DNA of 64,000 nt from a virus, in IMG/VR virus record IMGVR_UViG_3300008114_003234, positions 1 through 64,000 of that record. One strand, given 5' to 3'. The first letter of the stretch is position 1. Each line of letters starts with the position of its first letter. The notes beneath the pieces are model-generated. The model searched no databases. It worked only from the letters and a program-made list of their open reading frames with translations, and was not told the origin of the DNA. The translations under genes and the position numbers were made by a program. This document shows, in pieces, positions 23,391 to 56,449 of this stretch.

Positions 23391-23735
23391 TTAACTATAC
23401 AAATAAGATTCATATTTTTCCTCGTCGTTTATATTAATTTGTAAGTTCACTTCTTTATAAGTCGTCTTAAACTGTATCACAACAAGGTTCAGAATTTCAT
23501 GTTCATCATTTGAAAGTAAGTTCTCTATCGACTTTTCTCTTTGTTCTTGCAAAGTGTATTTAGGACCGCAAGTAATCTTTATATCAATAGTGAGTCTAGT
23601 TTTCTTCTTCAAATACTCAGAAACCATTCTTTGATATTCTGATTCATTTTTTCTATAATTCTTGAATAAAAATACTGAAAAAATTACAAGTCTTGTTATA
23701 TAATTGTGATTAATTTCAGATATATCTAACTTCAT
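23391..23735 (-). CDS. Hypothetical protein
   Basis: ORF overlapping its neighbour by 4 nt; internal REKSIENLL motif. Confidence 0.5.
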   Translation of the reverse strand: MKLDISEINHNYITRLVIFSVFLFKNYRKNESEYQRMVSEYLKKKTRLTIDIKITCGPKYTLQEQREKSIENLLSNDEHEILNLVVIQFKTTYKEVNLQININDEEKYESYLYS

Positions 23736-23926
23736 GATAAAATCTCTTCGATTTTTTTATTTCTAATTTGAAAAACGGTATATAGCTCATCTAAACTATA
23801 TTGACAATCACACCACGTACAAACAACCAGATTATTTTCTGATTCCATAATTTCTTGAGTATAACAAATTGGACAAAATCTTTTAATAGTTTTGACTCTT
23901 AACGAAAAGTTTCTAAAATTATCCAT
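23732..23926 (-). CDS. Small Zn-ribbon protein
   Basis: CPIC...CTWC; C-terminal RNKKIEEILS. Confidence 0.55.
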   Translation of the reverse strand: MDNFRNFSLRVKTIKRFCPICYTQEIMESENNLVVCTWCDCQYSLDELYTVFQIRNKKIEEILS

Positions 23927-23983
23927 ATATTTAGTATTTAGAAAATTACAAAAGGTTTTATTAAACTTTCAATGCATTACAAG

Positions 23984-23999
23984 TATATACATGTATATA
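23984..23999. promoter_or_regulatory. Perfect 16-bp palindrome, candidate operator
   Basis: TATATACATGTATATA in the divergent intergenic region, 11 nt upstream of the RHH-like gene. Confidence 0.5.
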
Positions 24000-24010
24000 A
24001 ATTCTAAATT

Positions 24011-24196
24011 ATGGCAAAAGATCGAATGATGAGTCTTAGAATCCCAGAGGTTCTTATTGAAGAGTATAAAAAATTCTGCGAAGAAAACTCTTTTACTATG
24101 TCAAAAAGACTCAGAAAACTTATGGAAAACGACCTGGATCGTTGGAGAAAATACAAATACGACCAAAAGAAATCAGAATCTCAAAGCTCAGACTAA
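24011..24196 (+). CDS. Ribbon-helix-helix (CopG/Arc-like) DNA-binding protein
   Basis: MMSLRIPEVL.EEYKKFCEENSFTMSKRLRKLM: beta strand with alternating residues followed by two helices. Confidence 0.65.
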   Translation: MAKDRMMSLRIPEVLIEEYKKFCEENSFTMSKRLRKLMENDLDRWRKYKYDQKKSESQSSD

Positions 24197-24967
24197 ATGT
24201 ATAAAAAAATATACGATCTTTGCTCCATCAAAAATGTCGGAGGTGCGCATAAAAATGGACTCAATATTCCACCAAGAGTTTCCTGGATACTCAATATTTT
24301 GAAGCAAAATAATATCGAATACATCTTAGATGAATTTGAAGTTAAAAGATTTCAAAATAATAAATTTTATAATGTAGTACTTCCTGGAACTAACGGAAAA
24401 TTTGTCACTGCACATCACGATATAGTGAATCCACTATCTGACAATGCTAATGATAATTCAGCATCAGTGATAAATGCAATTATGACTAAAATAAACTCCC
24501 CAGAAACAACTGTTATTCTTTTAGATGGAGAAGAACCACCTATGGCCGGTGTCGGATCACAAAGAGCCTCTGAAATGATGAACTCTGGTGAATATGGTAA
24601 AGTAGATTGGGTTCTTAATTTCGAACTAACTGGAAAAGGTGGTCGACACTTTTTTATTGGAAATTATGATAATGAACTCAATACTCACATCAAAAATCTC
24701 TTTGGATGTCCGGTAGTTCAAACCCCATTTAATGATGCCACAGTCTTTAATAGAAACGGTATAGTATCAACTGTGATAAATCCACTACCACCGATTTCAG
24801 ATCGATATGAATCAAAATTTCAAAAAGAAATTATATCTTATGATGGAACACCTTTGGATTTTTCCATACTCTATAATTGTCACTCTTTAGAAGATAGTGT
24901 TTCAACAATTAGTCCAAAAGATATGCAAGATTTTGTTGAAATGGTTGTTGTTAAGATATTATCTTAA
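24197..24967 (+). CDS. Peptidase M28 family protein
   Basis: VTAHHD, ANDNSASV, LDGEE, VLNFELTG, YNCHS..D metal-ligand motifs. Confidence 0.75.
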   Translation: MYKKIYDLCSIKNVGGAHKNGLNIPPRVSWILNILKQNNIEYILDEFEVKRFQNNKFYNVVLPGTNGKFVTAHHDIVNPLSDNANDNSASVINAIMTKINSPETTVILLDGEEPPMAGVGSQRASEMMNSGEYGKVDWVLNFELTGKGGRHFFIGNYDNELNTHIKNLFGCPVVQTPFNDATVFNRNGIVSTVINPLPPISDRYESKFQKEIISYDGTPLDFSILYNCHSLEDSVSTISPKDMQDFVEMVVVKILS

Positions 24968-25578
24968 TATTCTAGAAGTAAAAAATTTGACACTACTTCA
25001 CCATTTATATCAATAGAGTGCTTTATCTTTTGATATTTTATGTTATAATAAGCCAGAAATAATTCATAGAACTTATCTCTCTTATTGTAATTCTTTACTA
25101 GTCCACTTTTGATATCATTGTCAACAGAATTTAGAATAATGAAGTTTATCTTGTGATAACTGACCATATCTTTTATTATTTTGATAACTGTTGACATTTT
25201 TCTAAAAAGTGTATTATAATCATTAACATTTTTGTCGTAATTATAAACACCATCTACATATTCTCCGAAACCAATAAATAAAAATTTGTCTGTTTTTATA
25301 CCGAATTGAGAAATATAATCAGCTAATGTTTTATAATTCTTTCCAGCGTTAATACAAGACGTATCTCTATTTCGGATAACTACGGACGAGACTATAACAT
25401 CTCTTTCGTCTATTTTGAAAGATGAGCACACATAGTCTCCAGTCTTGTAAAGACTATGTTCTACATCGTAAGGTTTTGTTAGACCTAATTCGATCTCCTC
25501 TCTTATGTAGAGAGAGATATCACTGTAGTCTATCGATTCAGAATTATCCTTATCAATATATGTTTTTAAGTATTTCAC
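24964..25578 (-). CDS. Hypothetical protein with MKYLKTY N-terminus
   Basis: GTG start with AATATATA 7 nt upstream. Confidence 0.5.
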   Translation of the reverse strand: MKYLKTYIDKDNSESIDYSDISLYIREEIELGLTKPYDVEHSLYKTGDYVCSSFKIDERDVIVSSVVIRNRDTSCINAGKNYKTLADYISQFGIKTDKFLFIGFGEYVDGVYNYDKNVNDYNTLFRKMSTVIKIIKDMVSYHKINFIILNSVDNDIKSGLVKNYNKRDKFYELFLAYYNIKYQKIKHSIDINGEVVSNFLLLEY

Positions 25579-25591
25579 TGTGATTTATATA

Positions 25592-26437
25592 TTAGTAATT
25601 CATAATAATTACTTCAGTCGTCACCTTATCACCTTTTCTTGACACTTTATTATAGTCAAATTGTAGTTCTTTATACCGATATCCTTCTGATATTAACTTA
25701 TCTAACATCCATGAAGTCTTGTTATCGTGGTATAACACACCAGACACCATAAATGATGATCCTATTTCATCAATTGATTTTAAGTAATTATACAACTTAA
25801 TATCATCATCTTCTTTCCAAAAAGCATTATAGCCAGCTTCTGATATCTGTTTCTTTCCGATAGAACCATCTTCATTTTTAATGCGTCCATAGGGAGGGTC
25901 AGCATAGAACATAATTTTATCTGAAGATATTTCAATCTGGTCAAACGGTAAAGATTTAAATCTTATTTTATCTTTATACTGACGAATATTTGAAGTAAAT
26001 GTCTCTACTTTTTTATCAGTGCTTTGATTCCAACCTCGATCGCCAAAAGTTTGGTTGTATTTAAACTTCTGATTAAATCTCATCATATTGTTAGTAGATG
26101 ATAACATTAAAGCCCATAGTTTAGCGGGTGTTGGATTAGAATTATAGTCTTCTCTTAACTTACCAAATAATTCTGGTTGTCCTTTAGATGGACAAATAGA
26201 TTTAGTCTCTTCGATAATGCGATCACTCTCAAGAAGAGATTTGTGAATACCAACCAAATCTTTGATAATATCATTAGCGATTAATTTCTCGTATTTATCT
26301 AAAACATTTGTATAAACAGATCCTCCACCACAGAAAAGATCTACAAAATAAGGTTTTGTATAATCAAATTCCGGTAAGATTTGTTCAAGCAGTTTAAACT
26401 TTGAACCTGTATAATTCATTACTGAGTCTATATACAT
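25592..26437 (-). CDS. Dam/D12-class N6-adenine DNA methyltransferase
   Basis: MNYTGSKFKL, DLFCGGGSV, FYADPPY. Confidence 0.9.
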   Translation of the reverse strand: MYIDSVMNYTGSKFKLLEQILPEFDYTKPYFVDLFCGGGSVYTNVLDKYEKLIANDIIKDLVGIHKSLLESDRIIEETKSICPSKGQPELFGKLREDYNSNPTPAKLWALMLSSTNNMMRFNQKFKYNQTFGDRGWNQSTDKKVETFTSNIRQYKDKIRFKSLPFDQIEISSDKIMFYADPPYGRIKNEDGSIGKKQISEAGYNAFWKEDDDIKLYNYLKSIDEIGSSFMVSGVLYHDNKTSWMLDKLISEGYRYKELQFDYNKVSRKGDKVTTEVIIMNY

Positions 26438-26442
26438 AATTT

Positions 26443-27000
26443 CTACATTAAAAGATATTCAATAACAAGTGGATAATACTTATATTCTAATTGATGAACT
26501 TTATTTGCAATAATTTCTGCTGTGTCACCAAGTTCAATATTAAATTTAGATTGATAAATAATCTCACCTTCATCATAATTACTGTTAACCCAGTGTATGG
26601 TAATTCCAGTTTCAGTCTCTCGATTTTTTATAACTTGTTCATGAACTTTCATTCCCCACATTCCCAATCCACCATACTTAGGAAGTAGTGATGGATGAAT
26701 ATTTACAATTTTATATTTATCAATCAATCCCTTATCAACCCTTCTTAAAAATCCTGCTAAAACAATAAGGTCTATTTTATGAGAGTCAAGTATATTAAGT
26801 AAATATCCTTCTGTTTTGAAAAATTCATTATTTAAAACAACAATCGGTATTTTATGAAGATTAACTTTCTCAATCAGTGGGGCCACAGGATTATTAGTAA
26901 TCACAAGTGACACTTGAATTTTTTCTTGAGATTTGAAGAATTCGATAATATTTAAAGCATTGGTTCCACTACCAGATGCGAAAATTGCGATTCTTTTCAT
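26443..27000 (-). CDS. purN: Phosphoribosylglycinamide formyltransferase
   Basis: IAIFASGSGTN, VLAGFL, VNIHPSLLPKYGG, GITIHWV...YDEGEII.Q. Confidence 0.92.
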   Translation of the reverse strand: MKRIAIFASGSGTNALNIIEFFKSQEKIQVSLVITNNPVAPLIEKVNLHKIPIVVLNNEFFKTEGYLLNILDSHKIDLIVLAGFLRRVDKGLIDKYKIVNIHPSLLPKYGGLGMWGMKVHEQVIKNRETETGITIHWVNSNYDEGEIIYQSKFNIELGDTAEIIANKVHQLEYKYYPLVIEYLLM

Positions 27001-27002
27001 AA

Positions 27003-27821: not shown

Positions 27822-27877
27822 TTTCTATGTTTTATTTTGTACAAGTTATATAAATATCACTTGCATTTGTTCAGATT

Positions 27878-28507
27878 TTAAGACAATAAGCAATTTGTTT
27901 TAAGTTCAAAATCAAGAGTAGACAATCTAGCAAACCTTTCAATCACTTTTGGTTTGGTATCATAATAAACATCTCGACCATCTAAATTAATTAAAAATTT
28001 TCTTCTTTTTTCCTTGATTACACGAAGTGGAGCGTCATCGTAATAGTACCCAACATTATTTGATAAAACTGCACGTAAAATCTCTGGTTCAGAAAGTCCA
28101 GATTGTTTAGCCTTTTCTACAATAGATGTTAAAACTCTTTCATAGTTTACAGACCTTAGAGTTGAATTTTCGAAAATTGAGTTGTAAAGAGTTGCCTTAT
28201 CTTTGCTAATAAAATTAGATCTATCAATGATTTTAGAGTAAGTCTCAATTGATTCTTTTGTAGAAATAGACACCTCAGGCTTTACTTGTGGATTTTCTAT
28301 CCATTCACTAAGAGATCTACGAATTTCAATTTCAACATCCCTTGCTTCTCTTTCAGTTTCATATTCAACCAGTGAAATAAATCTAACTGGTCTAAAGCAC
28401 TCAGTTGAGTTGTACTTAGATAGTCTAGAAAAAGGATCTATTGTAAATCCAAATTTAAATAAATCTGAAAGACCATCAGTTACGATATAAACCCATCCTC
28501 CGCTCAT
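27878..28507 (-). CDS. GIY-YIG/T5orf172-like nuclease domain protein
   Basis: GWVYIV....LFKFGFT.DP.SRL..YN ... E.E N-terminal motif. Confidence 0.65.
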   Translation of the reverse strand: MSGGWVYIVTDGLSDLFKFGFTIDPFSRLSKYNSTECFRPVRFISLVEYETEREARDVEIEIRRSLSEWIENPQVKPEVSISTKESIETYSKIIDRSNFISKDKATLYNSIFENSTLRSVNYERVLTSIVEKAKQSGLSEPEILRAVLSNNVGYYYDDAPLRVIKEKRRKFLINLDGRDVYYDTKPKVIERFARLSTLDFELKTNCLLS

Positions 28508-28833
28508 CTTAGAATATTTACAAATCCAGTTTTTCTAATTATCTCATACTTTTCATAGGAGTACTCTAGATAATAAACATAAGATGTAAGTGGAGAGAAG
28601 TGTTCTTTTCCACCAACCCAAGGTTGATTTATTTGATTAGTTTTAAAAATGAGATCTCCCCACATATTATAAATTCTTAGTTCATAGTGAGTGAGTGAAT
28701 CACCACCACTTGTATAAACTTGAAATACATCATTTGTGCCATCACCATCTGGGGTGAAAGCATTAGGAACGAATATATCTTGACCGAATAAGCTTGATGA
28801 AATTAATAATAGTAGTACTACTAGAGTTTTCAT
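28504..28833 (-). CDS. Signal peptide plus stand-alone T9SS type-B (gliding-motility/CHU_C) C-terminal domain
   Basis: MKTLVVLLLLISSSLFGQ, then IFVPNAFTPDGDGTNDVF, LRIYNMWGDLIF, W.G, YVYY, G.VNILR; no passenger domain. Confidence 0.8.
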   Translation of the reverse strand: MKTLVVLLLLISSSLFGQDIFVPNAFTPDGDGTNDVFQVYTSGGDSLTHYELRIYNMWGDLIFKTNQINQPWVGGKEHFSPLTSYVYYLEYSYEKYEIIRKTGFVNILR

Positions 28834-37792: not shown

Positions 37793-38269
37793 TTATTTCA
37801 TTTCAATCTCTTTGAGTATAGATTGTAAGTGATTTGCAACTTTATGTGTTTTTAACACTTGACGATTCTTCATTCGACGTTGCACTTCTTTCTCAAATCG
37901 ACTAATCACAATTTTAACATATTCAGACGGAATTGGCATATCTACAAAAGCCGGTACAGAACCTTCAGATCGTTTATACTCAATCAAACTAACTGAACAG
38001 TCTGACTCGGTTGAAGCACCTGGACGAATTATCAAAAGGTAATTGTCATTTTCAATGTGATAGGTATAGTCAATAGAATTAGAACGTAGTTCGGTATTTG
38101 AATCGCCGATTAGTTTCAGACAAATTGAGAAGAGAGGTTTTTGAATCTCGCTCAATTCTGGTCGTTGTTTAGCGTCTAGTGTCTTGATTATGTTCCTACG
38201 GCGACGTTTAAGGTAAACAACTGTCTTTTTGAATTTGTAAAATAACCACTGCTTAAATGTTCTTTTCAT
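37793..38269 (-). CDS. Hypothetical protein
   Basis: Co-oriented ORF only. Confidence 0.5.
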   Translation of the reverse strand: MKRTFKQWLFYKFKKTVVYLKRRRRNIIKTLDAKQRPELSEIQKPLFSICLKLIGDSNTELRSNSIDYTYHIENDNYLLIIRPGASTESDCSVSLIEYKRSEGSVPAFVDMPIPSEYVKIVISRFEKEVQRRMKNRQVLKTHKVANHLQSILKEIEMK

Positions 38270-38289: not shown

Positions 38290-39411
38290 TTATTGTTCGT
38301 TTTCGTCTTTTGATTCGTATGAATTAGAACCACACTTTTTATCAAAGTCTGAATCTTGTTCAAATCCTTTACAAATTAGTGAGTCTACAATTTGATGCCA
38401 AGTCAACTTTCCTCGATAGTTAAATTGATTCTCTGATACTGATTCAAATGTTGCATCAATATCTATCGAAGTGAGTGTATTTAAAGCATCTTTGTCAATT
38501 TTAGTTGTTCCATCTTTCTTTTCAAGAGTGATAGTGTAAAAACCACCTGTTAACATATCTAAAACGGCATCTTCTTTTAAGTTCAGCACAGGTGATATTT
38601 GACTAACGACTTTTTTAAGTGATTCGTCTAATTCGATTCCTGTTTTATTTAATTGAGATACAAAGAAGTTATATCCATTTGATTCTTCTTTGGGCATTAA
38701 ACTTTTAAGTCTTGAGTTAAGAACTTTAAGTTCATCTTTAAGTTTTACATCTTTTGACTCAGATCTATCAAGTTCTATACGGTTTTTAAAGATCTCGGAT
38801 TCTTTTACTTCAATTCGTTCTTTAAGTTCTTTAATCTTTTCTTGATTCATTTTCTCAAAAGCTTCTTCTAAGAATTTCTTAGATTCTTTCTTTTGTGACT
38901 TTTTTTCTTTCTTTGGTTTTGATACTTCTTCTTGCTTAGTATCTTCAGTATCTTGAAATAGAGCATCTAGAATAGAAAGACCTGATGTAGATATTTCAGA
39001 TTTTTCTTCGAAAATCGAAAACATCTTATCGATTGGTTTTTTATGTTCCACTTCTAGATAGCAGTTTTTGCCTTCTTCATCAAAGAATTCTAAATTAGAA
39101 ACAACAAATTTTTGAACGTAACCTGTGACCTCAGTCGAATCAATATCATCAATAAATCGTTGAATCATATCTGGATTGGATAGATTTGTATCGACTTCTT
39201 CAAAATCTATTGTACCTTCATCTAGGATTGTTACTTTGAATTTCGCGCCTTCTAGCATCATAGAAAACTTCTCACCTTTAATAAAGGCTTCAGTGGAAAG
39301 AAGACGAATCTTACCTTTTAGTCCGGTGACAAAGTTCAAGAATTGACGTTTAGGTTTATACTTTCCTAATTTAGTGGATTTTTCTGTTTCTTTTTCTTTT
39401 TCTTTTTCCAT
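38290..39411 (-). CDS. Hypothetical coiled-coil protein
   Basis: K/E-rich heptad-like middle region; host-type promoter upstream. Confidence 0.55.
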   Translation of the reverse strand: MEKEKEKETEKSTKLGKYKPKRQFLNFVTGLKGKIRLLSTEAFIKGEKFSMMLEGAKFKVTILDEGTIDFEEVDTNLSNPDMIQRFIDDIDSTEVTGYVQKFVVSNLEFFDEEGKNCYLEVEHKKPIDKMFSIFEEKSEISTSGLSILDALFQDTEDTKQEEVSKPKKEKKSQKKESKKFLEEAFEKMNQEKIKELKERIEVKESEIFKNRIELDRSESKDVKLKDELKVLNSRLKSLMPKEESNGYNFFVSQLNKTGIELDESLKKVVSQISPVLNLKEDAVLDMLTGGFYTITLEKKDGTTKIDKDALNTLTSIDIDATFESVSENQFNYRGKLTWHQIVDSLICKGFEQDSDFDKKCGSNSYESKDENEQ

Positions 39412-45272: not shown

Positions 45273-45274
45273 AA

Positions 45275-45862
45275 CTATCGATTATTAAAAAACTTCTGAA
45301 TGAAAAAAATACACAAACCACAAATAAATCCACCAATGTGAGCAAGGTGTGAGATATTATCTTTAGAATAGATTTGAAGTAAAACTTCTGAAATAATTAA
45401 AAGTGAAGTTAAATATTTAGCTCGTATTGCAATAGGTAAGAATATAATTCCAAGATATTGATTTGGATTTAAAAGTGTCCAAATTGAAAGTAATCCGAAT
45501 ATAGCACCAGATGCACCAACCATTGGGTTTGTAGAATCTGATATACTAAGATGAAAAAATGCAGCATATACACCACAAAATAAATAATAGACTAAAAAGT
45601 TAGATCCTAACCACTTCTCAACATCTTTTCCAATGGTATAAAGACCTATCATATTAAATAATAAATGAAAAAAACCACCATGTAAAAATTGATGTGTGAT
45701 TAATTGATAGTAATGAAAGTTTGATGGTTGAAGAGCAAAAAGACGAATTAATTCACTTTCTTGAGAAAGGATACCACAGAAAAATGAAATTACAAACATA
45801 ATAATATTCGCAATTACTATTTTCCCAGTGACGGTTTCTCTAAGTTTTTGGTAAAATATCAT
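45275..45862 (-). CDS. Rhomboid family intramembrane serine protease
   Basis: THQFLHGGFFHLLFNM, GASGA catalytic Ser, SHLAHIGG catalytic His; multiple hydrophobic helices. Confidence 0.9.
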   Translation of the reverse strand: MIFYQKLRETVTGKIVIANIIMFVISFFCGILSQESELIRLFALQPSNFHYYQLITHQFLHGGFFHLLFNMIGLYTIGKDVEKWLGSNFLVYYLFCGVYAAFFHLSISDSTNPMVGASGAIFGLLSIWTLLNPNQYLGIIFLPIAIRAKYLTSLLIISEVLLQIYSKDNISHLAHIGGFICGLCIFFIQKFFNNR

Positions 45863-45886
45863 AATAACAAATATAAATTATAAATA

Positions 45887-46240
45887 TCAATCTAACAAAT
45901 TTTTTAAAATAAACTCTCTTTTAAGTTCTTTTAATTTTACTAAATTGTCTCTGTGAAGATCTTCTATTTCGATGCTCATAGATTGACTTCGAGTGTCAAA
46001 GTTTAAAGTTCTCTCGATATCTTTAATAAATTTATTAATTTGTTCAAATTTTAAAGGTTTAGAATTATACTTAATAAAATCATTTTTAATATAGTGTGGC
46101 ATTTTACTAACATCATCCAATTTTTCTTCACTATCTACTAAAATCCAGTAGACATCATCAGATTTATAAATTATATGAGACATTCTAGTTAAACTATCTA
46201 AATGATACTTAACTATGGTTAATAAAGCTCCCTCTATCAT
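45887..46240 (-). CDS. Hypothetical protein
   Basis: C-terminal REFILKNLLD. Confidence 0.5.
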   Translation of the reverse strand: MIEGALLTIVKYHLDSLTRMSHIIYKSDDVYWILVDSEEKLDDVSKMPHYIKNDFIKYNSKPLKFEQINKFIKDIERTLNFDTRSQSMSIEIEDLHRDNLVKLKELKREFILKNLLD

Positions 46241-47469
46241 TTAATTTTCTGTTTTAATTCATTAAGGTCCGTAAGGTATAAGTCTTTAGGTTCAATAGAT
46301 TTTAACTTCTCAATTTCCTCTTTTTTAGACGTGAATTCTGATTTAAGTTTTTCAAACATTTCTTTGGTTAGAGAGTAGATTGGCATTCTTAGTAGATAAT
46401 CATAGGAATCATCTATTTTTTCAATTGAGTTTTCTTCTATTTGAACGATAATATCGTCTTTTGGCTTATTGTTAATTTCAATTTTACCATCTAGTACACA
46501 TTTTATAAACTTACCTCTGTTTCCAAGTAATTTTAACTCACTTTGAAGTTTTGATAATTGATAGTCTTTTCTTTTTTGATAATAAGTTAGTCTGAAATCA
46601 ACAAAGTATTTTATAATTTCTTCAACACTTTCAAATATTTTTAACTTGCCATTTTCATCGAGAGTATTGAAGTTTTCCGTTTCATTCTCTTCAAGTTTAA
46701 GCAGTTTATATAATTTTTCAGTGTCATGTGACTCTAAATCAACTCTGGTGAACTTTATTGTGTAATCTATATTGTCTTTACAATTATCATCATAAGAAAC
46801 AATATCTTTATTATCAATTAACTTATCAAGTACCTCTTCATACTTCTCATAAGTCATTGATGGCGGAAGCTCAGTAATCTTTACGGTTGTAGTATTTACT
46901 TTTTCAAATTTTCCTCTAATATGCCATTTTTTTGGGTTATCTACGTCTTGAATATACTCACCTGTAAATCCTTGTAAGAATGGTGAAATTTTTGCTATTT
47001 TACCGTCTTTTAAATATTTCACACAAACACTAATTAGTTCTTTCAAGTCTCGATTTAAGATGTTAGATGCAAAACCTACAGCAATTCCAGAACCACCATT
47101 CACAAGAACAGTTGGAACTATAGGTAAGAAATAAGTCGGTTCAATTTTTTCACCTTCTTCTTCTTTGTATTCTAGAAGTTCAAAATCTTTATAGATTAAT
47201 CTAAAATTAGGACTTAATTTAGTACCAATATATCTCGGTGCTCCTGCTTGAGGGGACCTTAGAGAACCGAATTGACCATCTTCTTCTAAAAGTGGTACAT
47301 TGTTTTTAAACTTTTGAGCTAAATTAATGACAGCAGAATTTAAAGATGAGTTGTGAGTTACTAACATTGCATTCTTGTTTATCAAAAAATTATGATATTT
47401 ATTTACTGTTATATCATAGAATTTTTTCTCCTCATCTAGTACGATTTTTTTAACTGATTTTATTTTCAT
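46237..47469 (-). CDS. Split-intein C-half (40 aa) fused to the C-terminal part of type IIA topoisomerase A subunit (T4 gp52-like)
   Basis: MKIKSVKK...FYDITV..YHNF...VTHN then SSL...; extein has GQFGSL, GAPRYI (active Tyr), LVNG.SGIAVG, ITELP; no gyrase C-terminal domain. Confidence 0.9.
   Translation of the reverse strand: MKIKSVKKIVLDEEKKFYDITVNKYHNFLINKNAMLVTHNSSLNSAVINLAQKFKNNVPLLEEDGQFGSLRSPQAGAPRYIGTKLSPNFRLIYKDFELLEYKEEEGEKIEPTYFLPIVPTVLVNGGSGIAVGFASNILNRDLKELISVCVKYLKDGKIAKISPFLQGFTGEYIQDVDNPKKWHIRGKFEKVNTTTVKITELPPSMTYEKYEEVLDKLIDNKDIVSYDDNCKDNIDYTIKFTRVDLESHDTEKLYKLLKLEENETENFNTLDENGKLKIFESVEEIIKYFVDFRLTYYQKRKDYQLSKLQSELKLLGNRGKFIKCVLDGKIEINNKPKDDIIVQIEENSIEKIDDSYDYLLRMPIYSLTKEMFEKLKSEFTSKKEEIEKLKSIEPKDLYLTDLNELKQKIK
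47350..47469 (-). other. Intein C fragment (IntC)
   Basis: Block F (YDITV) and block G (HN); Ser+1 codon at 47347-47349. Confidence 0.9.
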
Positions 47470-48373
47470 TTATAAACTCTTTACAATTTTTGATATTTGT
47501 TTCTATAGGTACATCTGACCAAATTTCCAATATTTTGAACCCTCTTTTTGTCGCAACTTTGTTTTTAATACGAGTTTTTTTTACGTTAGTTTTCCAATTT
47601 TCATTTGTAAATGGATTTCTCCATTTTTTTCTATCTGGATCATCTTCTCTTACGTGAAAAGTAGTGCCATGGAATTCTATAATCAACTTTTCACTTCTAA
47701 TTGTGAAATCATAGAAATAAACTCTCTTACCAGTTTGAATGAAAAATTCACTTTTATTTTCATTACCGATATAAATGTCATCCTCACTTAAACCAATTTC
47801 TATGCACCAATTGTATAATTCTCCAAACACTAACATTGATTCTTTAGAGGCCTTTCCGAAAGTGTGTTGTCTAGGATCGAATCCTAACTCTAAGATAAAT
47901 CTATCGTGTGATCTTAGCCAGTTTTCTTTAAATAAATTCGGATTCTGTTCAATTGTCTTTTTAAGAGTATCTTTTTTTCTTTTCTTAATCGATTCATGTT
48001 CAGATACATTATTCACACCGTATTTTTCCAACAAAGTCATTTTCATTTTTTCTTTGACTGATTTTCTCTGAAAAATATTTGATATTCCTTCATTATTCAT
48101 CATGTCTTCTTGCCATTTTAGTCTAGATTTCGAGTTTTTATAAAAATTATGTGGTGTACCACAAGACTTTAGAAAACTTCTCTCCTTCAGATCTCGTGAA
48201 CATTTTAAGGAGCAGGTTTGATTCTGTTTATGATGAAACTCAACTTCACAAATTGGACAAATTCTGAATTTCCTACAATCTGGACACAATTTAAATTTAT
48301 CTGGATTCTTTTCCATCCATTTCGGCGAAATTGATTTATTGTGGAACTCACTATTACATCTATTACATATCAT
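47450..48373 (-). CDS. Free-standing putative homing endonuclease (N-terminal Zn fingers, C-terminal Vsr-like PD-(D/E)xK domain)
   Basis: CNRC, CPDC, CPIC, CSLKC; LEKYGVNNVS repeat-like segment; YFYDF....LIIEFHG..FH and ILEIW nuclease motifs; sits between the intein halves. Confidence 0.75.
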   Translation of the reverse strand: MICNRCNSEFHNKSISPKWMEKNPDKFKLCPDCRKFRICPICEVEFHHKQNQTCSLKCSRDLKERSFLKSCGTPHNFYKNSKSRLKWQEDMMNNEGISNIFQRKSVKEKMKMTLLEKYGVNNVSEHESIKKRKKDTLKKTIEQNPNLFKENWLRSHDRFILELGFDPRQHTFGKASKESMLVFGELYNWCIEIGLSEDDIYIGNENKSEFFIQTGKRVYFYDFTIRSEKLIIEFHGTTFHVREDDPDRKKWRNPFTNENWKTNVKKTRIKNKVATKRGFKILEIWSDVPIETNIKNCKEFINENKIS

Positions 48374-48421
48374 AATCTATATATAAAAATTCTAATATTG
48401 TAATTTTTACCACCATGGAGA

Positions 48422-48952
48422 TCAAATGAAACTCTTTATCTCGTCTTGATCGGTAAGAAACTCTGCTTGAACCCAACCTCTTTGCGTTAGAAACGGATGA
48501 TTCGGTGTACACTTAATAATCTCTCCATTTTCTAACTCAATTTGTATTTCTTCTTTTGTGATGTTACCTATTCTAGGAGAATGACCTATCGATTCACAAA
48601 ATTTACCAGAAGTCTCATCATATGAAACGAGACTTAGTTCCTTGTCAGGAAAGTTATTAAACCAATCGATTAATCTGATGACGCTACCGTCGCTCATTAT
48701 TATTTCTGTCTCGGGATCCAGACAGTCACCGTGATGATAAAATTGGGTAGAAGCAACTATACCGGAAAGTTGAAACACCTTTAAGTGTTTCTCAGTACCT
48801 GTTTTCCACACATTACACGACGCATTTATAATTTTACGTTGACTTATTTTAAATCCATCTATAAGCGAAGGAAGAGCCCTATTCTCAATAGTATAAAAGG
48901 CAAATTCCTTGTACTCGTTTGATAGAAAGTCAGTAATCGTTTTTAGTTGCAT
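48422..48952 (-). CDS. N-terminal part of type IIA topoisomerase A subunit (76 aa) fused to split-intein N-half (100 aa)
   Basis: RALPSLIDGFKISQRK, YHHGD extein, then CLDPETEI (block A) and CTPNHPF (block B TxxH); stop at 48422. Confidence 0.9.
   Translation of the reverse strand: MQLKTITDFLSNEYKEFAFYTIENRALPSLIDGFKISQRKIINASCNVWKTGTEKHLKVFQLSGIVASTQFYHHGDCLDPETEIIMSDGSVIRLIDWFNNFPDKELSLVSYDETSGKFCESIGHSPRIGNITKEEIQIELENGEIIKCTPNHPFLTQRGWVQAEFLTDQDEIKSFI
48425..48724 (-). other. Intein N fragment (IntN)
   Basis: Cys1 codon at 48722-48724; no endonuclease domain inside. Confidence 0.9.
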
Positions 48953-49051
48953 ATAGACCTTATATATTGAAGAAATTTTGTTTGTTTGAAAACCTGTAAA
49001 ACAAAATAGGAGATAAATAATAATAAAGAATCGTATATATAATCAACAGTT

Positions 49052-50893: not shown

Positions 50894-51228
50894 AAAGAGA
50901 TAGAGCTTGGAGAAGAAATAAACAAGAGTTGATTCTTAAAAAGAGAATCAAAATACATTCTGCCAAGACTACTTATTATTACTGGGGATTTTTTAACTCA
51001 AATGAAGATCAAATCACACAACCTATTTGGGTTGATCACATAGGCTCTAAATTTACTAATTTCTATAAAAGAGATAAGACAAAGGTTTGGACTTCGAAAA
51101 TAAAATGTAAATACTCACCTAATAAGAATAAAGGATACTATAGAGATATAAGAGGCAAAAAATCTGGTTGTAGAGAGAAAGATAAATATAGTTTTCAATT
51201 AATTTTAAAAGAAAATGGATTGGTTTAA
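50890..51228 (+). CDS. Basic hypothetical protein
   Basis: GTG start overlapping the upstream stop. Confidence 0.5.
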   Translation: MKRDRAWRRNKQELILKKRIKIHSAKTTYYYWGFFNSNEDQITQPIWVDHIGSKFTNFYKRDKTKVWTSKIKCKYSPNKNKGYYRDIRGKKSGCREKDKYSFQLILKENGLV

Positions 51229-51754
51229 ATTTCTTCCAAAGAATATTGAATGGAAGATTCAACACAATAGAATTTACTACAGAAAAATGGCTTGGATTCC
51301 ATTCGCCTATATCAATTCATCGAAAATGGTATGCCTTTATCTTGAGCCGAAAAGTTCAAAGTTAATTTTAAAGGTAACCAAAGAACTAATGAAAACAAAA
51401 TGTAAATTCTTTTTCATTTCACCTATGCTTGATGATCCACATATTCAAAGAAATACAGATAATATACCTAGATTAAATATCGAAAACTATTTAAAAAACT
51501 ACGCAATACCTGTTTTCTTTGATGGATTCGATAAAATAGGATTTGATATCATTGAAAATCTAATATTATATTGTAAATCCACAAATTCATTTGAACTTAT
51601 AAAAGAAGTTCTACAGTCAGTAAACAATGAAGTACAGTCAAAATATTTTGACTACTACTCAAAAAAAGATATTTATAACACAAAACGTGAAGATATCAGA
51701 GAAAGGTTTAATAATCTTTGGAGAGATATTCAAATACAAAATCTATTGAAATGA
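51215..51754 (+). CDS. Hypothetical protein
   Basis: C-terminal RDIQIQNLLK. Confidence 0.55.
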   Translation: MDWFKFLPKNIEWKIQHNRIYYRKMAWIPFAYINSSKMVCLYLEPKSSKLILKVTKELMKTKCKFFFISPMLDDPHIQRNTDNIPRLNIENYLKNYAIPVFFDGFDKIGFDIIENLILYCKSTNSFELIKEVLQSVNNEVQSKYFDYYSKKDIYNTKREDIRERFNNLWRDIQIQNLLK

Positions 51755-52008
51755 AAAGCAGTGAGATAAAAATGTTAGAAGAAGAAGACTTTTTCTATTA
51801 TGACTATTGGGATGATTATTACTATCAAGATGATGACCATTTTCACTCTGAATTTTCAAAAGTCGACTATTCAATAGATGAAAACGGACTAGTGGACTGG
51901 ACGATTGAGATACCAGTTTCGATCAAAAGATTAAGAAGAATTGAAAGTTTATTAAATTCACAAGCAACAGACACATCAAACAAGATGTGTCACTACTGGC
52001 CTAAATAA
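51751..52008 (+). CDS. Small hypothetical protein
   Basis: ATGA overlap at 51751 preferred as start; RLRRIESLL near the C-terminus. Confidence 0.5.
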   Translation: MKSSEIKMLEEEDFFYYDYWDDYYYQDDDHFHSEFSKVDYSIDENGLVDWTIEIPVSIKRLRRIESLLNSQATDTSNKMCHYWPK

Positions 52009-53551
52009 CCCTTAAATATCTAGGGGTTTCAAACTTATCAGTTTGAATAGAAAGAGCATATCTCATTATTTTTGTGATAATGTCATTCGCTACTTTAGGT
52101 TCTTTATTATAAATTTGAGCTATTGCGATTACTATTTGCAAAGATTGTATTCTTGATATTAGTTTGTTTTCACTTGTAGAAATATCCGATCCTCTACTTA
52201 TTGAGGTAACCGATATCAATTCAGATTTTATTGTCGATTTTCCTTTTTGAATTAATTGATTTACTAAATTTTTTAATTCTTCAATATTCAAAGATCTCAA
52301 CTCTTCTGAAGATTGTATCTTCTGAATATTCTCAAACTGTACTGTCTCAATTATTCTCTTTAGGGCTTTAAAAGATATCTTACCATGCCTTGAAGAGGAC
52401 CCCTCAACTTCACCATCAATATCTACTTTTTTACTTGTATCTGATGAATCTAGATTAAGAGTTCTTTTTTTGGTATCAACATTTTTATTATTTCTATACT
52501 TCCACTCTGAAAAAGTGTCTATTTTAGAACCAATTCCTTTCAACTCATCTCCAATTCTAAATGTTGATATTTTAAAGTCTGGTAGGTCTTTATCGACTTC
52601 CCTGTTAATAATGACTTTAAAATCAGTTCCTTCTGATAGCTTTTTAAGTGATATCGGTATTAGAATTTTTTGATCAAATAACTCATCCACCAATTTAGTC
52701 ATCTCTGAGATAGTTTTGCAACTCCTTATCTTTTCATTCACCTCATGAATATTATTAATAGCAACTAGGTAAACATCCGCCGGGCACCATTTTGTAAAGT
52801 TTATATCTTTGAATCCTTCCTGTTTTGAAAATAAATTAAACTGCTTATTTAAGTTCACATATGGTGAATCTAACTCTTTATTACCAACGTGATAAATATA
52901 ATAGAGTTGATTTTTATCGACATAATCTTTTCTCCATATTCTGTTTGGAATTTTATAAAAAGTATATAACCAACTTAAATCAGAATAAAACTCATCCAGT
53001 AGTTCTAAATTAAGATCAATTTTATCACTAGTCTTAATTAGAGACTGACCAGTCTGTCTAACCAATCTCATGTATTTCTTATAAAAAGAAACCATGTTTC
53101 TATCATTTAAGTTGATGTTTGGATATGCCTGTTTTATACCAAGAAAAATACATTGAACTGTTTCAAATTCCCTTATTTTAACACCGGCACCCTTACTACC
53201 AAAATCACCGGTCTTTTTTATTTGATTAAGACCAAATGTTTGACCATCCTCAGTTTTAAATACCTTTCTAAATCTATTTTTTGATTTGAAATAAGTCAAT
53301 GCCTTGTCAATATCGTAATTACCATCTAAATCAGTGAAAATAGATATTGCGGTTTCAACATCAACCCAATTATCTTCGGAGTCTAACATTTGAAAAACAA
53401 CAATATTTTTATCCTCTACGTCAAAAAAATCTGAGTTTTTTAATTTGTCAATTAAGACATTACCTCTAACACGACCGTCTCTTATTGCGGCCAATTGATT
53501 AAGATTAAGAAGAGCCTCATTGAATGTTTTAAAATATTTGATATCAAACAT
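52001..53551 (-). CDS. Hypothetical protein, possible PD-(D/E)xK nuclease fold
   Basis: Start re-assigned to ATG 53551 (AATATATA 4 nt upstream; MFDIKYFKTFNEA); WCPADVY...IPISLKK motif. Confidence 0.5.
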   Translation of the reverse strand: MFDIKYFKTFNEALLNLNQLAAIRDGRVRGNVLIDKLKNSDFFDVEDKNIVVFQMLDSEDNWVDVETAISIFTDLDGNYDIDKALTYFKSKNRFRKVFKTEDGQTFGLNQIKKTGDFGSKGAGVKIREFETVQCIFLGIKQAYPNINLNDRNMVSFYKKYMRLVRQTGQSLIKTSDKIDLNLELLDEFYSDLSWLYTFYKIPNRIWRKDYVDKNQLYYIYHVGNKELDSPYVNLNKQFNLFSKQEGFKDINFTKWCPADVYLVAINNIHEVNEKIRSCKTISEMTKLVDELFDQKILIPISLKKLSEGTDFKVIINREVDKDLPDFKISTFRIGDELKGIGSKIDTFSEWKYRNNKNVDTKKRTLNLDSSDTSKKVDIDGEVEGSSSRHGKISFKALKRIIETVQFENIQKIQSSEELRSLNIEELKNLVNQLIQKGKSTIKSELISVTSISRGSDISTSENKLISRIQSLQIVIAIAQIYNKEPKVANDIITKIMRYALSIQTDKFETPRYLRVI

Positions 53552-53634
53552 GTGGTATATATTAACTACTACTTTTAACATTTAAAAACTAAGTCTAAAT
53601 GGTGAACTATAACTATAAAATATTACATATTTAA

Positions 53635-54609
53635 ATGTTATTAAACTGTATAATAGATGGTAATTATATTCTTTCACGATTGACTTTCACGCTTCATAAA
53701 AACAATCTCCTTTATGGTGCTCTTCTTCAATCACTAGAAAACACTATCTCAAATTATAAAAAAATGTATCCTTTTGCCAACTTCTACTTGGTATCGGATT
53801 CAAAAGAAAAATCTTGGAGAAAAAAATTAAACTCTAATTACAAGGCTAATAGAAAGAAAGATTCAGATATTGACTGGAATTTTGTCTATACTACTTATGA
53901 GGAATTTAAACAAAAAATTAAAAGCACCGGAGTTAAAATACTTGAATCACCAACAATAGAAGGTGATGATTGGATTTCATTTGTTATTCACAACACGAAT
54001 GATGACGGTCAATCCAACTTTATTGTCTCAAATGATCATGATATTAAACAACTTTTAGGATTTGATCTTGAAAGAGAGTGGATTAATTTTATGAGTAATG
54101 AGATGTATAATCAAGAAAAGATATTTTTACCTAAAAATTATCAAGTGTTTATTAATAGGATATCATCAAAGCAAAATGACGATATTTTTAATTTAAACGA
54201 TAATGGCGAATTCTTGAGACTAATGAATAGGTTCATAACCAAGTATCAATTAGTTGAGATTAATAATTTACAATCACTTTTTGTTAAGATAATATCAGGA
54301 GATATTAGTGATAATATTCAGTCAGTATATCAAACAACTAAATCTGGGAAAATCAGAGGAATTGGCGTCAAAGGCGCTAGTTCGATTTATGAGACCTATA
54401 TAATTGAGTTTGGAGAACCTTCTCTGGAAGATCCTGATCTTTTCGAAAATATAGCAGATGTTATATGTGAAAAAAAGAAGATCTCTAGGTCGAATATTCA
54501 AAATATAGTTGATAAGATAAAAGATAATATGAAATTGATTGACCTAAGAATAGACAACTTTCCTGATGAAATAAGAAATAACATGTCTACATTATTTAAT
54601 AATCGATAA
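53635..54609 (+). CDS. rnh: T4 RNase H-like 5'-3' exonuclease/flap endonuclease
   Basis: IIDGNY, WRKK....YKANR, IEGDDWI, SNDHDIKQL, ISGDISDNI. Confidence 0.85.
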   Translation: MLLNCIIDGNYILSRLTFTLHKNNLLYGALLQSLENTISNYKKMYPFANFYLVSDSKEKSWRKKLNSNYKANRKKDSDIDWNFVYTTYEEFKQKIKSTGVKILESPTIEGDDWISFVIHNTNDDGQSNFIVSNDHDIKQLLGFDLEREWINFMSNEMYNQEKIFLPKNYQVFINRISSKQNDDIFNLNDNGEFLRLMNRFITKYQLVEINNLQSLFVKIISGDISDNIQSVYQTTKSGKIRGIGVKGASSIYETYIIEFGEPSLEDPDLFENIADVICEKKKISRSNIQNIVDKIKDNMKLIDLRIDNFPDEIRNNMSTLFNNR

Positions 54610-54612
54610 GAT

Positions 54613-55002
54613 ATGGCCGAACTTATAGATGTTGCAAATGCTCTTTTTAAAGACAAGAAGAACTGGGTTAACATTTCTGAAGAAGATAAAAACAAATATT
54701 TCTTTATATTCAATCGATACTTCAGCAAAAAGTATACAACAAAATCTCAACTTTTGAATATGAAGTCTGTGGAAAAGTCCACAGCTTTAGATTTGTGGTT
54801 CTATTTCTTTAAAGACAAATCTTACCCTCAGTGGTTTTGGTCAAAAAGTCCTAAATCGGAAACAGGAGAAATCGACCAAAAAGATTTCTTACTATTAATG
54901 GACAAATTAAACTTAAATAAATCAGAAGATTTAGTATACCTAATAGAGAACTACCCAGATTTAATTAAAGAAGAATTAAAATTTTATAAAAACAAAAAAT
55001 AA
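54613..55002 (+). CDS. Hypothetical protein, weakly reminiscent of clamp-loader small subunit (gp62-like)
   Basis: FIFNRYFS and WFW segments; recognition is weak. Confidence 0.3.
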   Translation: MAELIDVANALFKDKKNWVNISEEDKNKYFFIFNRYFSKKYTTKSQLLNMKSVEKSTALDLWFYFFKDKSYPQWFWSKSPKSETGEIDQKDFLLLMDKLNLNKSEDLVYLIENYPDLIKEELKFYKNKK

Positions 55003-55004
55003 AA

Positions 55005-55547
55005 ATGGCAGAAACAATGAACTGGTACGCAATTCGTACTCAAAACAACAGAGAAAGAAGTGTTTTAGAAAAATTGAAACTTGAAATATCACGAGAAAAG
55101 CTTAGTGATATAATTGGTAGAAACATCATACCTACTGAAAAGGTTTTCTCAGTTAAAAATGGTAAAAGAGTCGCAAAAGAAAGAATTCTTTATCCAGGAT
55201 ATCTATTTATCGAAACGTCACACGTAGGAGAAATAAACAATTTCTTGAAAGTTATAAAAGGAGCTGCTGGGTTTGTACGTTCTAAAAACGGTGATATTAA
55301 TCCACTTCACGACTGGGAAGTAAAGAAAATGATTTCAGACCAAGATACTAACGATAACGTAGAGGTAAATACATCTATGTTCTCTGTTGGAGAGGAAGTT
55401 AAAGTGATTGACGGGCCATTTAGTACATTTAGAGGTACTATTTCACACGTTGATGATCAAAAAAATAAATTGAAGGTCGAAGTTTTGATCTTCTCAAGAG
55501 CGACTATGGTAGAGCTTGACTTTATTCAAGTTGAAAGAGTTTCATAA
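55005..55547 (+). CDS. nusG: Transcription elongation factor NusG
   Basis: WYAIRT...RE, IIPTEKV, LYPGYLFIE; KOW FSVGEEVKVIDGPFSTFRG, VEVLIFSRATMVELDF.QVE. Confidence 0.93.
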   Translation: MAETMNWYAIRTQNNRERSVLEKLKLEISREKLSDIIGRNIIPTEKVFSVKNGKRVAKERILYPGYLFIETSHVGEINNFLKVIKGAAGFVRSKNGDINPLHDWEVKKMISDQDTNDNVEVNTSMFSVGEEVKVIDGPFSTFRGTISHVDDQKNKLKVEVLIFSRATMVELDFIQVERVS

Positions 55548-55551
55548 TATT

Positions 55552-55962
55552 TTGGACAAACAAGCAAGATACGATCTAACATACCTTGAAATGGCCAAAA
55601 CTTGGTCCAAACTGTCCCAGTGTTCAAGACTAAAAGTCGGTGCACTAATAGTTAAAAATGGAATGATTATCTCAGATGGTTTCAATGGCACTCCAAATGG
55701 ATATGATAATTGTTGCGAAGATGAAAACTACCAAACACATTGGTATACACTACATGGTGAGGCAAATGCCATACTGAAGTGTGCAAGGTGGGGTCACTCT
55801 TGTGAAGGTTCCACTTTATATTTAACTCATTCACCTTGTAAAAATTGTTCTAAATTAATTTTACAATCTGGTATCTCAAGGGTAGTATATGAGGAAGATT
55901 ATCGTGATGATTTAGGAGTACAATTTTTAAAGTCTTCGGGAATAAAAGTAGATAAAATCTAA
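55552..55962 (+). CDS. dCMP deaminase
   Basis: CSRLKVGALI, GFNGTP, HGEANAI, THSPCKNC; probable TTG start at 55552. Confidence 0.9.
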   Translation: MDKQARYDLTYLEMAKTWSKLSQCSRLKVGALIVKNGMIISDGFNGTPNGYDNCCEDENYQTHWYTLHGEANAILKCARWGHSCEGSTLYLTHSPCKNCSKLILQSGISRVVYEEDYRDDLGVQFLKSSGIKVDKI

Positions 55963-55969
55963 AATAAAT

Positions 55970-56449
55970 ATGTCATTTATAGAGTCTCTGAGTAAATTAG
56001 AATCAGAAGTGGAAGTTCTTATTTTCTCTGATAAAGATATAACCGCCCTAAAAATGTTATTTGATAACTCAATTAGACTCGGTAATAATGACATGAGTAA
56101 TGTGACTGTTGCTAGTCTCCACCCAAGTCTTTGGTTTGAAAGCCTTTATTCTCATTTTAACAACTGTTTAGCTGTTGTTCCAAAGAGACCTCAGTATTTC
56201 TTACACACAATTGAGAATGGTGAAATTTTCAGAAGAGTATTTAGTGCGGAAACTAAAGAATTTAATTCAGATGAGGAAATAATAAAATTTTTCAAAGAAG
56301 AATGTGAATTCAAATCTCTTTCAATTTTTGGAATTTGTAAATATCTTGATGTTACAACACTTAAAACACGGTGGTATCTTAGATACAACGACATTACGGA
56401 TATCACAACTTTAAGAGATAATAAACTCGAATCTTTAATTAATATATAG
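55970..56449 (+). CDS. Hypothetical protein
   Basis: C-terminal RDNKLESLINI. Confidence 0.55.
   Translation: MSFIESLSKLESEVEVLIFSDKDITALKMLFDNSIRLGNNDMSNVTVASLHPSLWFESLYSHFNNCLAVVPKRPQYFLHTIENGEIFRRVFSAETKEFNSDEEIIKFFKEECEFKSLSIFGICKYLDVTTLKTRWYLRYNDITDITTLRDNKLESLINI

Follow-up and report, generated by a model that had tools for sequence, protein, structure and literature searches.

A C-terminal peptide tag shared by unrelated small proteins in a clade of giant Bacteroidota phages

Why should small phage proteins with nothing obvious in common end in nearly the same few residues? The question is raised by a 64,000-nucleotide stretch of viral DNA (positions 1 to 64,000 of IMG/VR record IMGVR_UViG_3300008114_003234; hereafter the window). 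An initial annotation had pointed out six proteins, from genes scattered over both strands, that stop within one or two residues of an R-x-x-[KQ]-[IL]-x-x-[LI]-[LI] peptide, together with two proteins bearing near-terminal or internal copies, and had suggested an amphipathic helix serving as an address tag. All eight peptides translate exactly at the positions listed in Table 1. Here, we show that the peptide is a C-terminal tag on a large set of proteins in each genome and is selected as a peptide. Its occurrence is specific to one clade, its wording shifts between lineages and its carriers are biased to one class of promoter. No published description of such a tag was found in our literature searches.

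The window is a fragment of an uncultured giant phage of Bacteroidota. Its Pfam content includes a split T4-type topoisomerase II, DnaK, collagen-like and PKD/CHU_C (type IX secretion) proteins, a DUF2201 zincin/VWA protein and a MoxR-like AAA+ ATPase, and the cellular sequences nearest to its DnaK come from Bacteroidota. The large subunit of its topoisomerase II is 66% identical to that of LR745206.1 (634,780 bp), 63.5% to that of LR756502.1 (642,428 bp) and 42% to that of LR756504.1 (636,363 bp). From their sizes, we take these uncultured relatives to be Mahaphage genomes (PMC7162821), and the window would belong to a megaphage of this type. LR745206.1 and LR756504.1 were taken in full for whole-genome counts.

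The tag and the proteins that carry it

The window gene set consists of the longest non-overlapping open reading frames (ORFs) of at least 50 amino acids (aa), which gives 64 genes and 20,539 residues. Such calls of the longest ATG ORFs are crude; the stop codons fix the C-termini, and spurious ORFs can merely dilute the signal. Six of the 64 proteins end in R-x-x-x-[IL]-x-x-[IL][IL] plus one or two residues, as the initial annotation had seen. Throughout the set, this relaxed pattern occurs 14 times, of which these six lie at the end, and the strict form, R..[KQ][IL]..[LI][LI], occurs five times, always at the C-terminus. Shuffling whole proteins or their last 40 residues yields a mean of 0.04-0.12 C-terminal matches (at most 3 in 5000 trials), reversed sequences yield none, and an N-terminal control, with matches starting within the first eight residues, yields one. 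In LR745206.1 (899 ORFs, 91% coding), 98 of 899 proteins end in the relaxed pattern at most 6 residues from the stop, where 1.5 are expected from shuffles and 1.8 from the internal rate; the N-terminal control gives a single match. The count rises to 137 (15%) when V, M or F is also allowed at the aliphatic positions. LR756504.1 has 106 tagged proteins out of 905 against 5.2 expected. The tag thus stands decisively above shuffles and internal positions, the two baselines to which the initial annotation had proposed to hold it, in the window, in LR745206.1 and, separately, in LR756504.1. Two hits are false positives of the search patterns: the native ClpP C-terminus YGMIDEIL, a coincidental match, and, with the broader V/M/F pattern, the type IX secretion system C-terminal domain (T9SS CTD) end of the product of 28504-28833.

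The consensus in LR745206.1 is K-x-x-h-R-[DEN]-x-K-[IL]-[ND]-x-[IL]-L, about 13 residues long. Counted from the arginine as position 0, it has K at -4 and a hydrophobic residue at -1, and then reads R-[D>E>N]-x-K-[I/L]-[N/D/K]-x-[I>L]-[L>I], with 0-6 mostly polar residues (mode 1) behind it. The arginine is near-invariant even in a search that did not require it. Lysine at +3 occurs in ~65% of the tags in LR745206 and ~42% of those in LR756504, and methylation of this residue by the SET enzyme of the window was deemed unlikely on these frequencies. The tag is most frequent among LR745206.1 proteins of 75-150 aa (20-26%) and is not found at 250-500 aa; there is one carrier of 731 aa, and tagged bodies span 53 to 731 aa. 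In membrane or signal bias and in net charge, tagged proteins are no different from untagged small proteins.

The bodies in front of the tag are unrelated. After the tag was trimmed, an all-against-all BLASTP search over the whole proteome left 96 of 98 LR745206 proteins as singletons, with no match between two tagged proteins, and 80 of 106 tagged bodies in LR756504 are singletons. Alignment of the 51215..51754 and 55970..56449 families by hhalign gave a probability of 0.2%, and 94 of the 97 tagged LR745206 proteins scanned have no Pfam family, one of the matches being the native ClpP. The claim that the bodies share nothing obvious is borne out by all three methods, and hidden paralogy was rejected on the same grounds.

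Selection acts on the peptide. At each position of the tag, codons are used as in the genome as a whole, and those for Ile and Leu replace each other freely; therefore, what is constrained is the peptide rather than the DNA or RNA. The nucleotides that encode the six window tags are no more conserved than the peptide requires. In addition, orthologues keep the tag where their bodies are only 36-44% identical or match at E=1e-9 (29405/g525104, 51215, 45887 and 55970). Chance, composition, or a DNA or RNA element at gene ends (a promoter, terminator, translational-coupling or recombination site) could be suspected in an AT-rich genome whose tag is made of common codons, and an ATGA start-stop overlap follows three of the six tags in the window. 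This explanation is refuted: shuffles and internal rates give 50-60 times fewer tags, synonymous codons follow genome usage, the tagged gene at 35717 is convergent with its neighbour, and relatives' loci of equal GC have no tags. A composition artefact was thus rejected by the shuffles and by equally AT-rich relatives, and a DNA-level element by the codon usage.

AlphaFold2 (AF2) models of two tagged families, both mixed alpha/beta, place the tag in a helix. In the 51215 family (seven-sequence alignment, pLDDT 88), the tag forms the last 2-3 turns of a 23-residue helix (residues 156-178) that comes after a low-confidence loop. The model of the 55970 family is poor (pLDDT 53), and its terminal helix over the tag (residues 145-157) has low confidence. 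On a helical wheel, the conserved positions -4, -1, 0, +1, +3, +4, +5, +7 and +8 span about two-thirds of the circumference. The conserved aliphatic residues lie at -1, +4, +7 and +8, the arginine sits in the middle of the aliphatic face, and only +2 and +6 point away. Conservation round the modeled helix suggests that it is gripped in a groove. A fold search with the 51215 model gave no match. A search of the tag profile against the PDB for a solved counterpart returned kinase catalytic loops only, at chance level: h-R-D-x-K-[IL]-[DN]-x-I-L resembles the AGC kinase catalytic loop YRDIKLENIL (E=0.8-1.8), and the tagged proteins have no kinase domain.

Table 1. Positions of the tagged genes, the tag-like copies and the candidate reader genes in the window
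Feature	Position	Strand	Remarks
Zn-ribbon-like ORFan, 64 aa	23732..23926	-	ends VFQIRNKKIEEIL-S; tag 23738-23776
ORFan, 116/126 aa	29405..29785	-	ends LSYQRFFQINSII-K; tag 29411-29449
ORFan, 166 aa	35717..36217	-	ends NSVIRELKISRLL-S; tag 35723-35761; directly downstream of DUF2201 gene
ORFan, 117 aa	45887..46240	-	ends KELKREFILKNLL-D, K position degenerate; tag 45893-45931
Conserved protein, 179 aa, adjoins topoisomerase II	51215..51754	+	ends NNLWRDIQIQNLL-K; tag 51710-51748
ORFan, 159 aa	55970..56449	+	ends ITTLRDNKLESLI-NI; tag 56402-56440
Protein, 85 aa	51751..52008	+	tag-like VSIKRLRRIESLL (51916-51954), then conserved 17-aa extension ending YWPK
Protein, 114 aa	23391..23735	-	internal tag-like LQEQREKSIENLL (23514-23552), 40 residues before end
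MoxR-like AAA+ ATPase, candidate reader component	30688..31797	-	Pfam AAA_3/AAA/AAA_5; RavA-like P-loop PGVAKS
DUF2201 protein, candidate reader component	36260..37726	-	zincin-like peptidase HEDFH and VWA-like MIDAS DTSGS
DnaK/Hsp70, candidate reader	61083..62963	+	Pfam HSP70 E=2e-246; 80% identical in LR745206

Pfam and PHROG searches found no family for any of the eight window proteins with tags or tag-like copies, and the Zn-ribbon-likeness of the first is suggested by its cysteine pattern. The gene at 29405 may start at ATG 29755 instead of GTG 29785, and its LR745206 orthologue g525104 ends RHFKLNKLL-K. For REFILKNLL (45887..46240), the tag assigned by the initial annotation is present, but the [KQ] position of its motif is missed; orthologues read RDIKIKKLL, and those in two related loci (L018 and L019) end RDIKIK[SK]LL-S. 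The tag is retained in all six aligned orthologues of the 51215 family, and the orthologues of 55970 end R[ND]KKISTIL. Both the near-terminal and the internal copy are real and conserved in orthologues, the copy inside 23391..23735 as ERDYLLEDIL in the LR745206 orthologue g528198.

Several neighbours of the tagged genes were also observed. A rhomboid-family intramembrane protease (Pfam Rhomboid, E=3e-31) is encoded at 45275-45862 (-), directly downstream of a tagged gene. The 373-aa product of 38290-39411 (-) corresponds to residues 144-519 of the tagged 731-aa LR745206 protein and of a 713-aa protein in L018; it lacks their C-terminal domain (~210 aa) and the tag, and the next ORF, 37793-38269 (-), 158 aa, is unrelated. 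Genes for enzymes and factors are interleaved among the tagged genes: a 5'-3' exonuclease, a NusG-like factor, a dCMP deaminase, a UVR-motif bifunctional nuclease and a 2H phosphoesterase, with coordinates such as 53635-55962 (+), 28830-29408 (-) and 33093-33836 (-). The topoisomerase II A subunit, 46237-48952 (-), is split: an intein-splicing remnant and a DUF7487 gene separate its two ORFs. In relatives it is one 447-aa gene.

Clade, dialects and promoter classes

Comparison of 51 IMG/VR loci around topoisomerase II homologues revealed a sharp phylogenetic limit. In the four loci in which topoisomerase II shares at least 66% identity with that of the window, 15-25% of the genes are tagged, whereas the 47 loci at or below 55% identity have essentially no tagged genes, a dozen of them at an equal 29-30% GC. 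No alternative recurring C-terminus was visible by eye in these untagged relatives. A degenerate DNA pattern for the tag detected many further AT-rich viral contigs, up to 476 kb, that are tag-dense. Whole-record counts against the control are 30 vs 1 for LR745206, 25 vs 2 for LR756502 and 12 vs 5 for LR756504, and the pattern stays at control level in Lak-B5 and RsoM2USA. A related pattern without the stop codon matches 16 times in G001 and 13 times in G002 (controls 1 and 0; both genomes near-complete), and it has no match in the untagged G006 and G007 (near-complete) and G009 (67% complete). Five Bacteroidota genomes of 4-6 Mb carry the tag-plus-stop pattern at control level only. Therefore, the tag is no general motif of the host phylum, and host mimicry was rejected.

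The wording of the tag differs between lineages. The tags of LR756504.1 read (E)-(Y/H)-R-K-x-[K/I]-I-[E/K/N/D]-[D/E/N]-L-[L/I] and usually stand exactly at the C-terminus. D, E or N at +1 falls from 80% in LR745206 to 17% in LR756504 (p=6.5e-24) and K or R at the same position rises from 7% to 54% (p=7.5e-17), while D, E or N at +6 rises from 39% to 68% (p=9e-6) and I rather than L at +7 falls from 55% to 18% (p=2e-9). Nothing follows the tag in 11% of cases in LR745206, where the distance to the end is 0-6, and in 56% in LR756504 (59 of 106; p=4e-14). Within the closer group (the window, LR745206, LR756502, G001, G002 and others), the wording is the same. A concerted change over about 100 unrelated proteins would be expected if one common partner had changed, or if the tags pair mutually, but not if they were independent caps. 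Since the whole tag population shifts between lineages, the partner most likely co-evolves and is phage-encoded.

The second of these possibilities, in which tag helices bundle and so gather or oligomerise the tagged proteins without a separate reader, is unlikely in our estimate. It has in its favor the heptad-like aliphatic pattern with a buried polar arginine, the extension of a long helix by the tag in the 51215 model, and the opposite changes of the charged +1 and +6 positions between dialects, as complementary charges of a helix pair would change. Nevertheless, thirteen residues are short for a stable bundle and, by helical-wheel reasoning, conservation over about two-thirds of the helix includes positions that a simple zipper leaves free. 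Very unlikely is a tag that has no reader at all, being either a cis-acting stabilising cap or the last remnant of a hugely expanded, fast-diverging paralogue family. Some paralogous arrays exist (LR756504 has body clusters of 7, 5 and 4), the tags of locus L130 look alike, and the 51215 tag lies within a confidently packed helix. Most bodies, however, are singletons of 53-731 aa with differing predicted fold types, a generic cap would conserve neither Arg, Asp/Glu/Asn and Lys across folds nor shift in step, and equally AT-rich relatives do without the tag. Dense tandem arrays of tagged genes (70-145 aa), some of them paralogous, occur in LR756504.1 at 221-5300 (+), 606076-608988 (+) and 624676-629900 (-), that is, at both ends of the genome record.

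Tagged genes are also unevenly distributed among transcription units. Two motif families, TATATTTG(TA) and TAATATATA[AC], are overrepresented between the genes of LR745206. The former matches the Bacteroidota -7 element, TAnnTTTG, and the latter is taken as a phage-specific promoter. TAnnTTTG mostly stands before blocks of small genes and TAATATATA[AC] before replication and large genes; promoter-like motifs in the window include those at 45875 (-), 39436 (-), 49034 (+) and 48967 (-). When each LR745206 gene was assigned to the nearest upstream motif in its co-oriented run, 28% of the genes in host-type TAnnTTTG units were tagged, compared with 8.6% in phage-type AATATATA units (Fisher p=1e-10). 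In these motif-based classes, host-type units account for 67 tagged genes and phage-type units for 35. The bias persists within proteins of 60-200 aa, and genes of at least 600 aa are mostly in phage-type units. From the motifs, the tagged genes appear biased to presumed early units.

A second label was found at N-termini. The leader MK[YH][LI]KxF[NE]E starts about 31 LR745206 proteins and two window proteins, 33874-34680 (-) and 35481-35720 (+). Its distribution is opposite to that of the C-terminal tag: phage-type units contain 21 of these genes and host-type units 3 (difference p=2e-6), and only 2 of the 31 proteins carry both labels. The leader resembles the start of the T4 capsid targeting sequence (CTS). 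If it is indeed a head-targeting signal, the C-terminal tag probably does something else.

These distributions bear on the idea that the tag loads virion cargo. It would bind inside the procapsid or to the scaffold, and about 100 small proteins would thereby enter the giant head and be ejected together with the DNA. HK97-fold encapsulin shells do load unrelated cargo by short C-terminal peptides. The tagged proteins are small, diverse and fast-evolving, and the internal proteins of T4 are diverse defence proteins that have their targeting sequence as sole common part (PMC3012670). Even so, we consider cargo loading improbable. Tagged genes are about threefold enriched in host-type, presumed early units, large and presumably structural genes stand behind the phage-type motif, the late-biased set is marked by the separate T4-CTS-like leader, and no protease-type cleavage motif accompanies the tag.

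Candidate readers and the role of the tag

The initial annotation had named the AAA+/VWA pair or DnaK as possible readers. The MoxR-like gene of the window is 73% identical in LR745206 and 55% in LR756504. The DUF2201 protein is 71% identical between the window and LR745206, with the HExxH and the DxSxS metal ion-dependent adhesion site (MIDAS) intact. These two genes are 4.5 kb apart and have orthologues in LR745206, LR756504, G001 and G002, and the pair and DnaK are present in every tag-bearing genome checked. In addition, LR745206 has two ClpP genes and a Clp-type AAA_2 ATPase (~700 aa) in the regions 123556-124221, 75197-75721 and 423224-425330. The whole proteostasis set has orthologues in LR756504 at 43-58% identity; therefore, any member could have co-evolved with the tag. 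Substitution of the +1 acidic residue by lysine in LR756504 counts against simple MIDAS coordination of that residue. Together, DnaK, MoxR, Clp ATPase and two ClpP make an unusually full proteostasis kit for a phage. The DUF2201 protein has two DnaJ-type CxxCxGxG zinc motifs (CQTCQGSG and CPDCGGSG) in a linker rich in Gly, Ser and Lys. The LR745206 orthologue conserves both motifs, which would be a possible functional link to the phage DnaK.

Co-occurrence does not single out one of these proteins. DUF2201 is absent from the untagged G006, and DnaK is present in the tag-bearing G001, G002 and G015 and absent from the untagged G006, G007 and G009. Across the few independent lineages that these comparisons cover, none of DUF2201, MoxR, DnaK, ClpP and Clp ATPase separates tagged from untagged phages beyond clade membership. 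The proposed readers are thus present where they should be, but lack specificity for tagged phages.

The core of the address-tag proposal of the initial annotation fits all tests: the bodies are unrelated, selection is on the peptide, orthologues conserve it, it is specific to a clade and its dialect changes lineage-wide. We infer that the tag acts in trans, as a portable docking label that is read by one co-evolving, probably phage-encoded partner and marks mostly early small proteins for common handling; we give this reading a probability of about 0.6. A helix of about 13 residues plus 0-6 polar residues would have been added to the C-terminus of 10-15% of the clade's proteins, mostly small, fast-evolving ORFans found preferentially in host-type (presumed early) promoter units. 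The aliphatic face, the near-invariant arginine in its middle and the flanking charges would fit the groove of one common partner, which could then handle all these unlike proteins as one class. Our best guess for this partner is a component of the phage proteostasis machinery: the MoxR AAA+/zincin-VWA pair, the Clp ATPase/ClpP or DnaK. Of these, we prefer a hub of the AAA+ chaperone or protease type, and the outcome might be timed unfolding, removal or tethering of early proteins. Among the functions listed in the initial annotation, a packaging signal is the least favoured, since the tags are biased to presumed early units and a separate T4-CTS-like leader marks a late-biased set.

Several observations weigh against a docking label read in trans. 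In the one confident model, the tag ends a long helix of high pLDDT rather than forming a tethered free peptide, so it may pack partly in cis. Tags that pair with each other would likewise produce a dialect shift. The early and late assignments come from promoter-like motifs only. Of the 137 tagged genes, 35 (about a quarter) follow the phage-type motif, and the six in the window are split between the two promoter classes. The case for each reader is also weakened. DUF2201/MoxR-like pairs occur in the untagged G009, Lak-B5 and RsoM2USA as well, the Clp ATPase is present in all records checked, tagged and untagged, and ClpP is present in the untagged G006 and missing from the tag-bearing G002. 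The match of DnaK to tag presence is confounded by clade membership, and the close MoxR likewise tracks the clade.

A variant of the docking label, which we hold to be doubtful though conceivable, is a modular adaptor arsenal. Each fast-evolving body would bind its own host target, which might be a defence protein or a housekeeping one, and the tag would couple body and target to a phage AAA+ hub (MoxR/zincin-VWA or Clp). If so, it would amount to phage-run targeted protein remodelling or degradation, a bacterial counterpart of viral F-box/PRANC hijacking with lineage-specific tag-hub dialects.

Huge phages have hundreds of small genes without assigned function. With the tag, about 100 ORFans per genome become one functional class, 10-15% of a huge phage's proteins fall under one terminal label, and the question is recast as finding the reader of one peptide. 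Should that reader be a chaperone or protease of the phage, bacterial viruses would gain their first described system for addressing or degradation on a proteome scale. The tag is short, portable and available in at least two mutually distinct dialects, which makes it directly testable; it could also serve as an orthogonal targeting tag.

Comparison with known systems

Studies on phage and bacterial peptide labels offer several partial counterparts. The role of the CTS of the T4 internal proteins in capsid targeting is confirmed (PMC3012670). Like the tag, the CTS is a short conserved terminal peptide that is the sole shared part of diverse, fast-evolving small phage proteins. One partner reads it, and it can be moved to foreign proteins, a behavior to which we liken the tag. 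The CTS, however, stands at the N-terminus of only a few late proteins, from which the prohead protease removes it. The tag does not occupy the ~10-residue position at the N-terminal start that characterizes the CTS. Instead, it lies 0-6 residues from the C-terminus of about 100 proteins per genome with a presumed-early bias, and it exists beside a CTS-like N-terminal leader.

Encapsulation peptides of bacterial microcompartments (BMC) conserve a hydrophobic pattern rather than a sequence and are joined through a poorly conserved linker (PMC4594438). BMC and encapsulin peptides are terminal peptides on unrelated proteins, dock to one shell protein and may be C-terminal. The tag is likewise a terminal peptide on unrelated proteins, at the C-terminus, and would dock to one partner. 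The BMC peptide is a short amphipathic helix, and the tag is a helix in both AF2 models. Unlike encapsulation peptides, the tag has a strict consensus, a near-invariant arginine and no evident linker, since it continues helix 156-178 in the 51215 model. Among the window proteins scanned with Pfam, there were no shell genes and no encapsulin family. Encapsulin cargo-loading peptides are extended C-terminal Gly/Ser-Leu motifs, not helices, and the tag consensus, R-[DEN]-x-K-[IL]-x-x-[IL]-L, contains no such motif.

The PIP-box and related clamp-binding peptides are often C-terminal, have hydrophobic residues at i, i+3 and i+4, and bring many clients to one ring hub. The tag shares the position and the spacing and would have many clients of one hub, but it does not fit Q-x-x-[ILM]-x-x-[FY][FY] or QL[SD]LF. 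In place of Q it has D/E/N or K, and it ends in two I or L residues, with F rare. There is neither a Gln anchor nor an aromatic pair; the invariant arginine and the lysine of the tag have no counterpart in the PIP-box. We know of no precedent for hundreds of ORFan clients of a clamp-type hub.

For MoxR-vWA chaperone pairs, capture of substrate peptides by the vWA domains has been proposed (PMC7159879). The window is similar in that a MoxR AAA+ ATPase and a MIDAS-bearing VWA/zincin protein are encoded together, as in all tag-bearing genomes. However, MIDAS sites bind extended peptides via an acidic side chain, whereas the tag is helical and its +1 acid becomes lysine in LR756504. Presence of the pair is also not tied to the tag, as DUF2201_N occurs in the untagged G009, Lak-B5 and RsoM2USA.

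The PRANC or F-box on poxvirus ankyrin proteins is a C-terminal adaptor motif that couples variable binders to a host hub. Like the tag, it is a small module that stays the same at the C-terminus of many viral proteins which themselves vary and evolve fast, and it is lineage-specific. It differs in being a truncated F-box of the eukaryotic ubiquitin system on a single repeat family, whereas the tag is on unrelated bodies in a bacterial system.

The last comparison is with tethering tails and degrons of AAA+ machines, such as the XB tail of SspB for ClpX, ssrA-like tags and MuA-like C-motifs. The tag differs from these signals in sequence. In LR745206 it has 0-6 variable residues after it (mode 1) and so would not rely on a fixed carboxylate, but in LR756504 59 of 106 tags have none. 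It resembles these signals in being short and at or near the C-terminus. Such signals deliver many unrelated proteins to one unfoldase or protease, and this phage encodes a Clp ATPase, ClpP and a MoxR ATPase.

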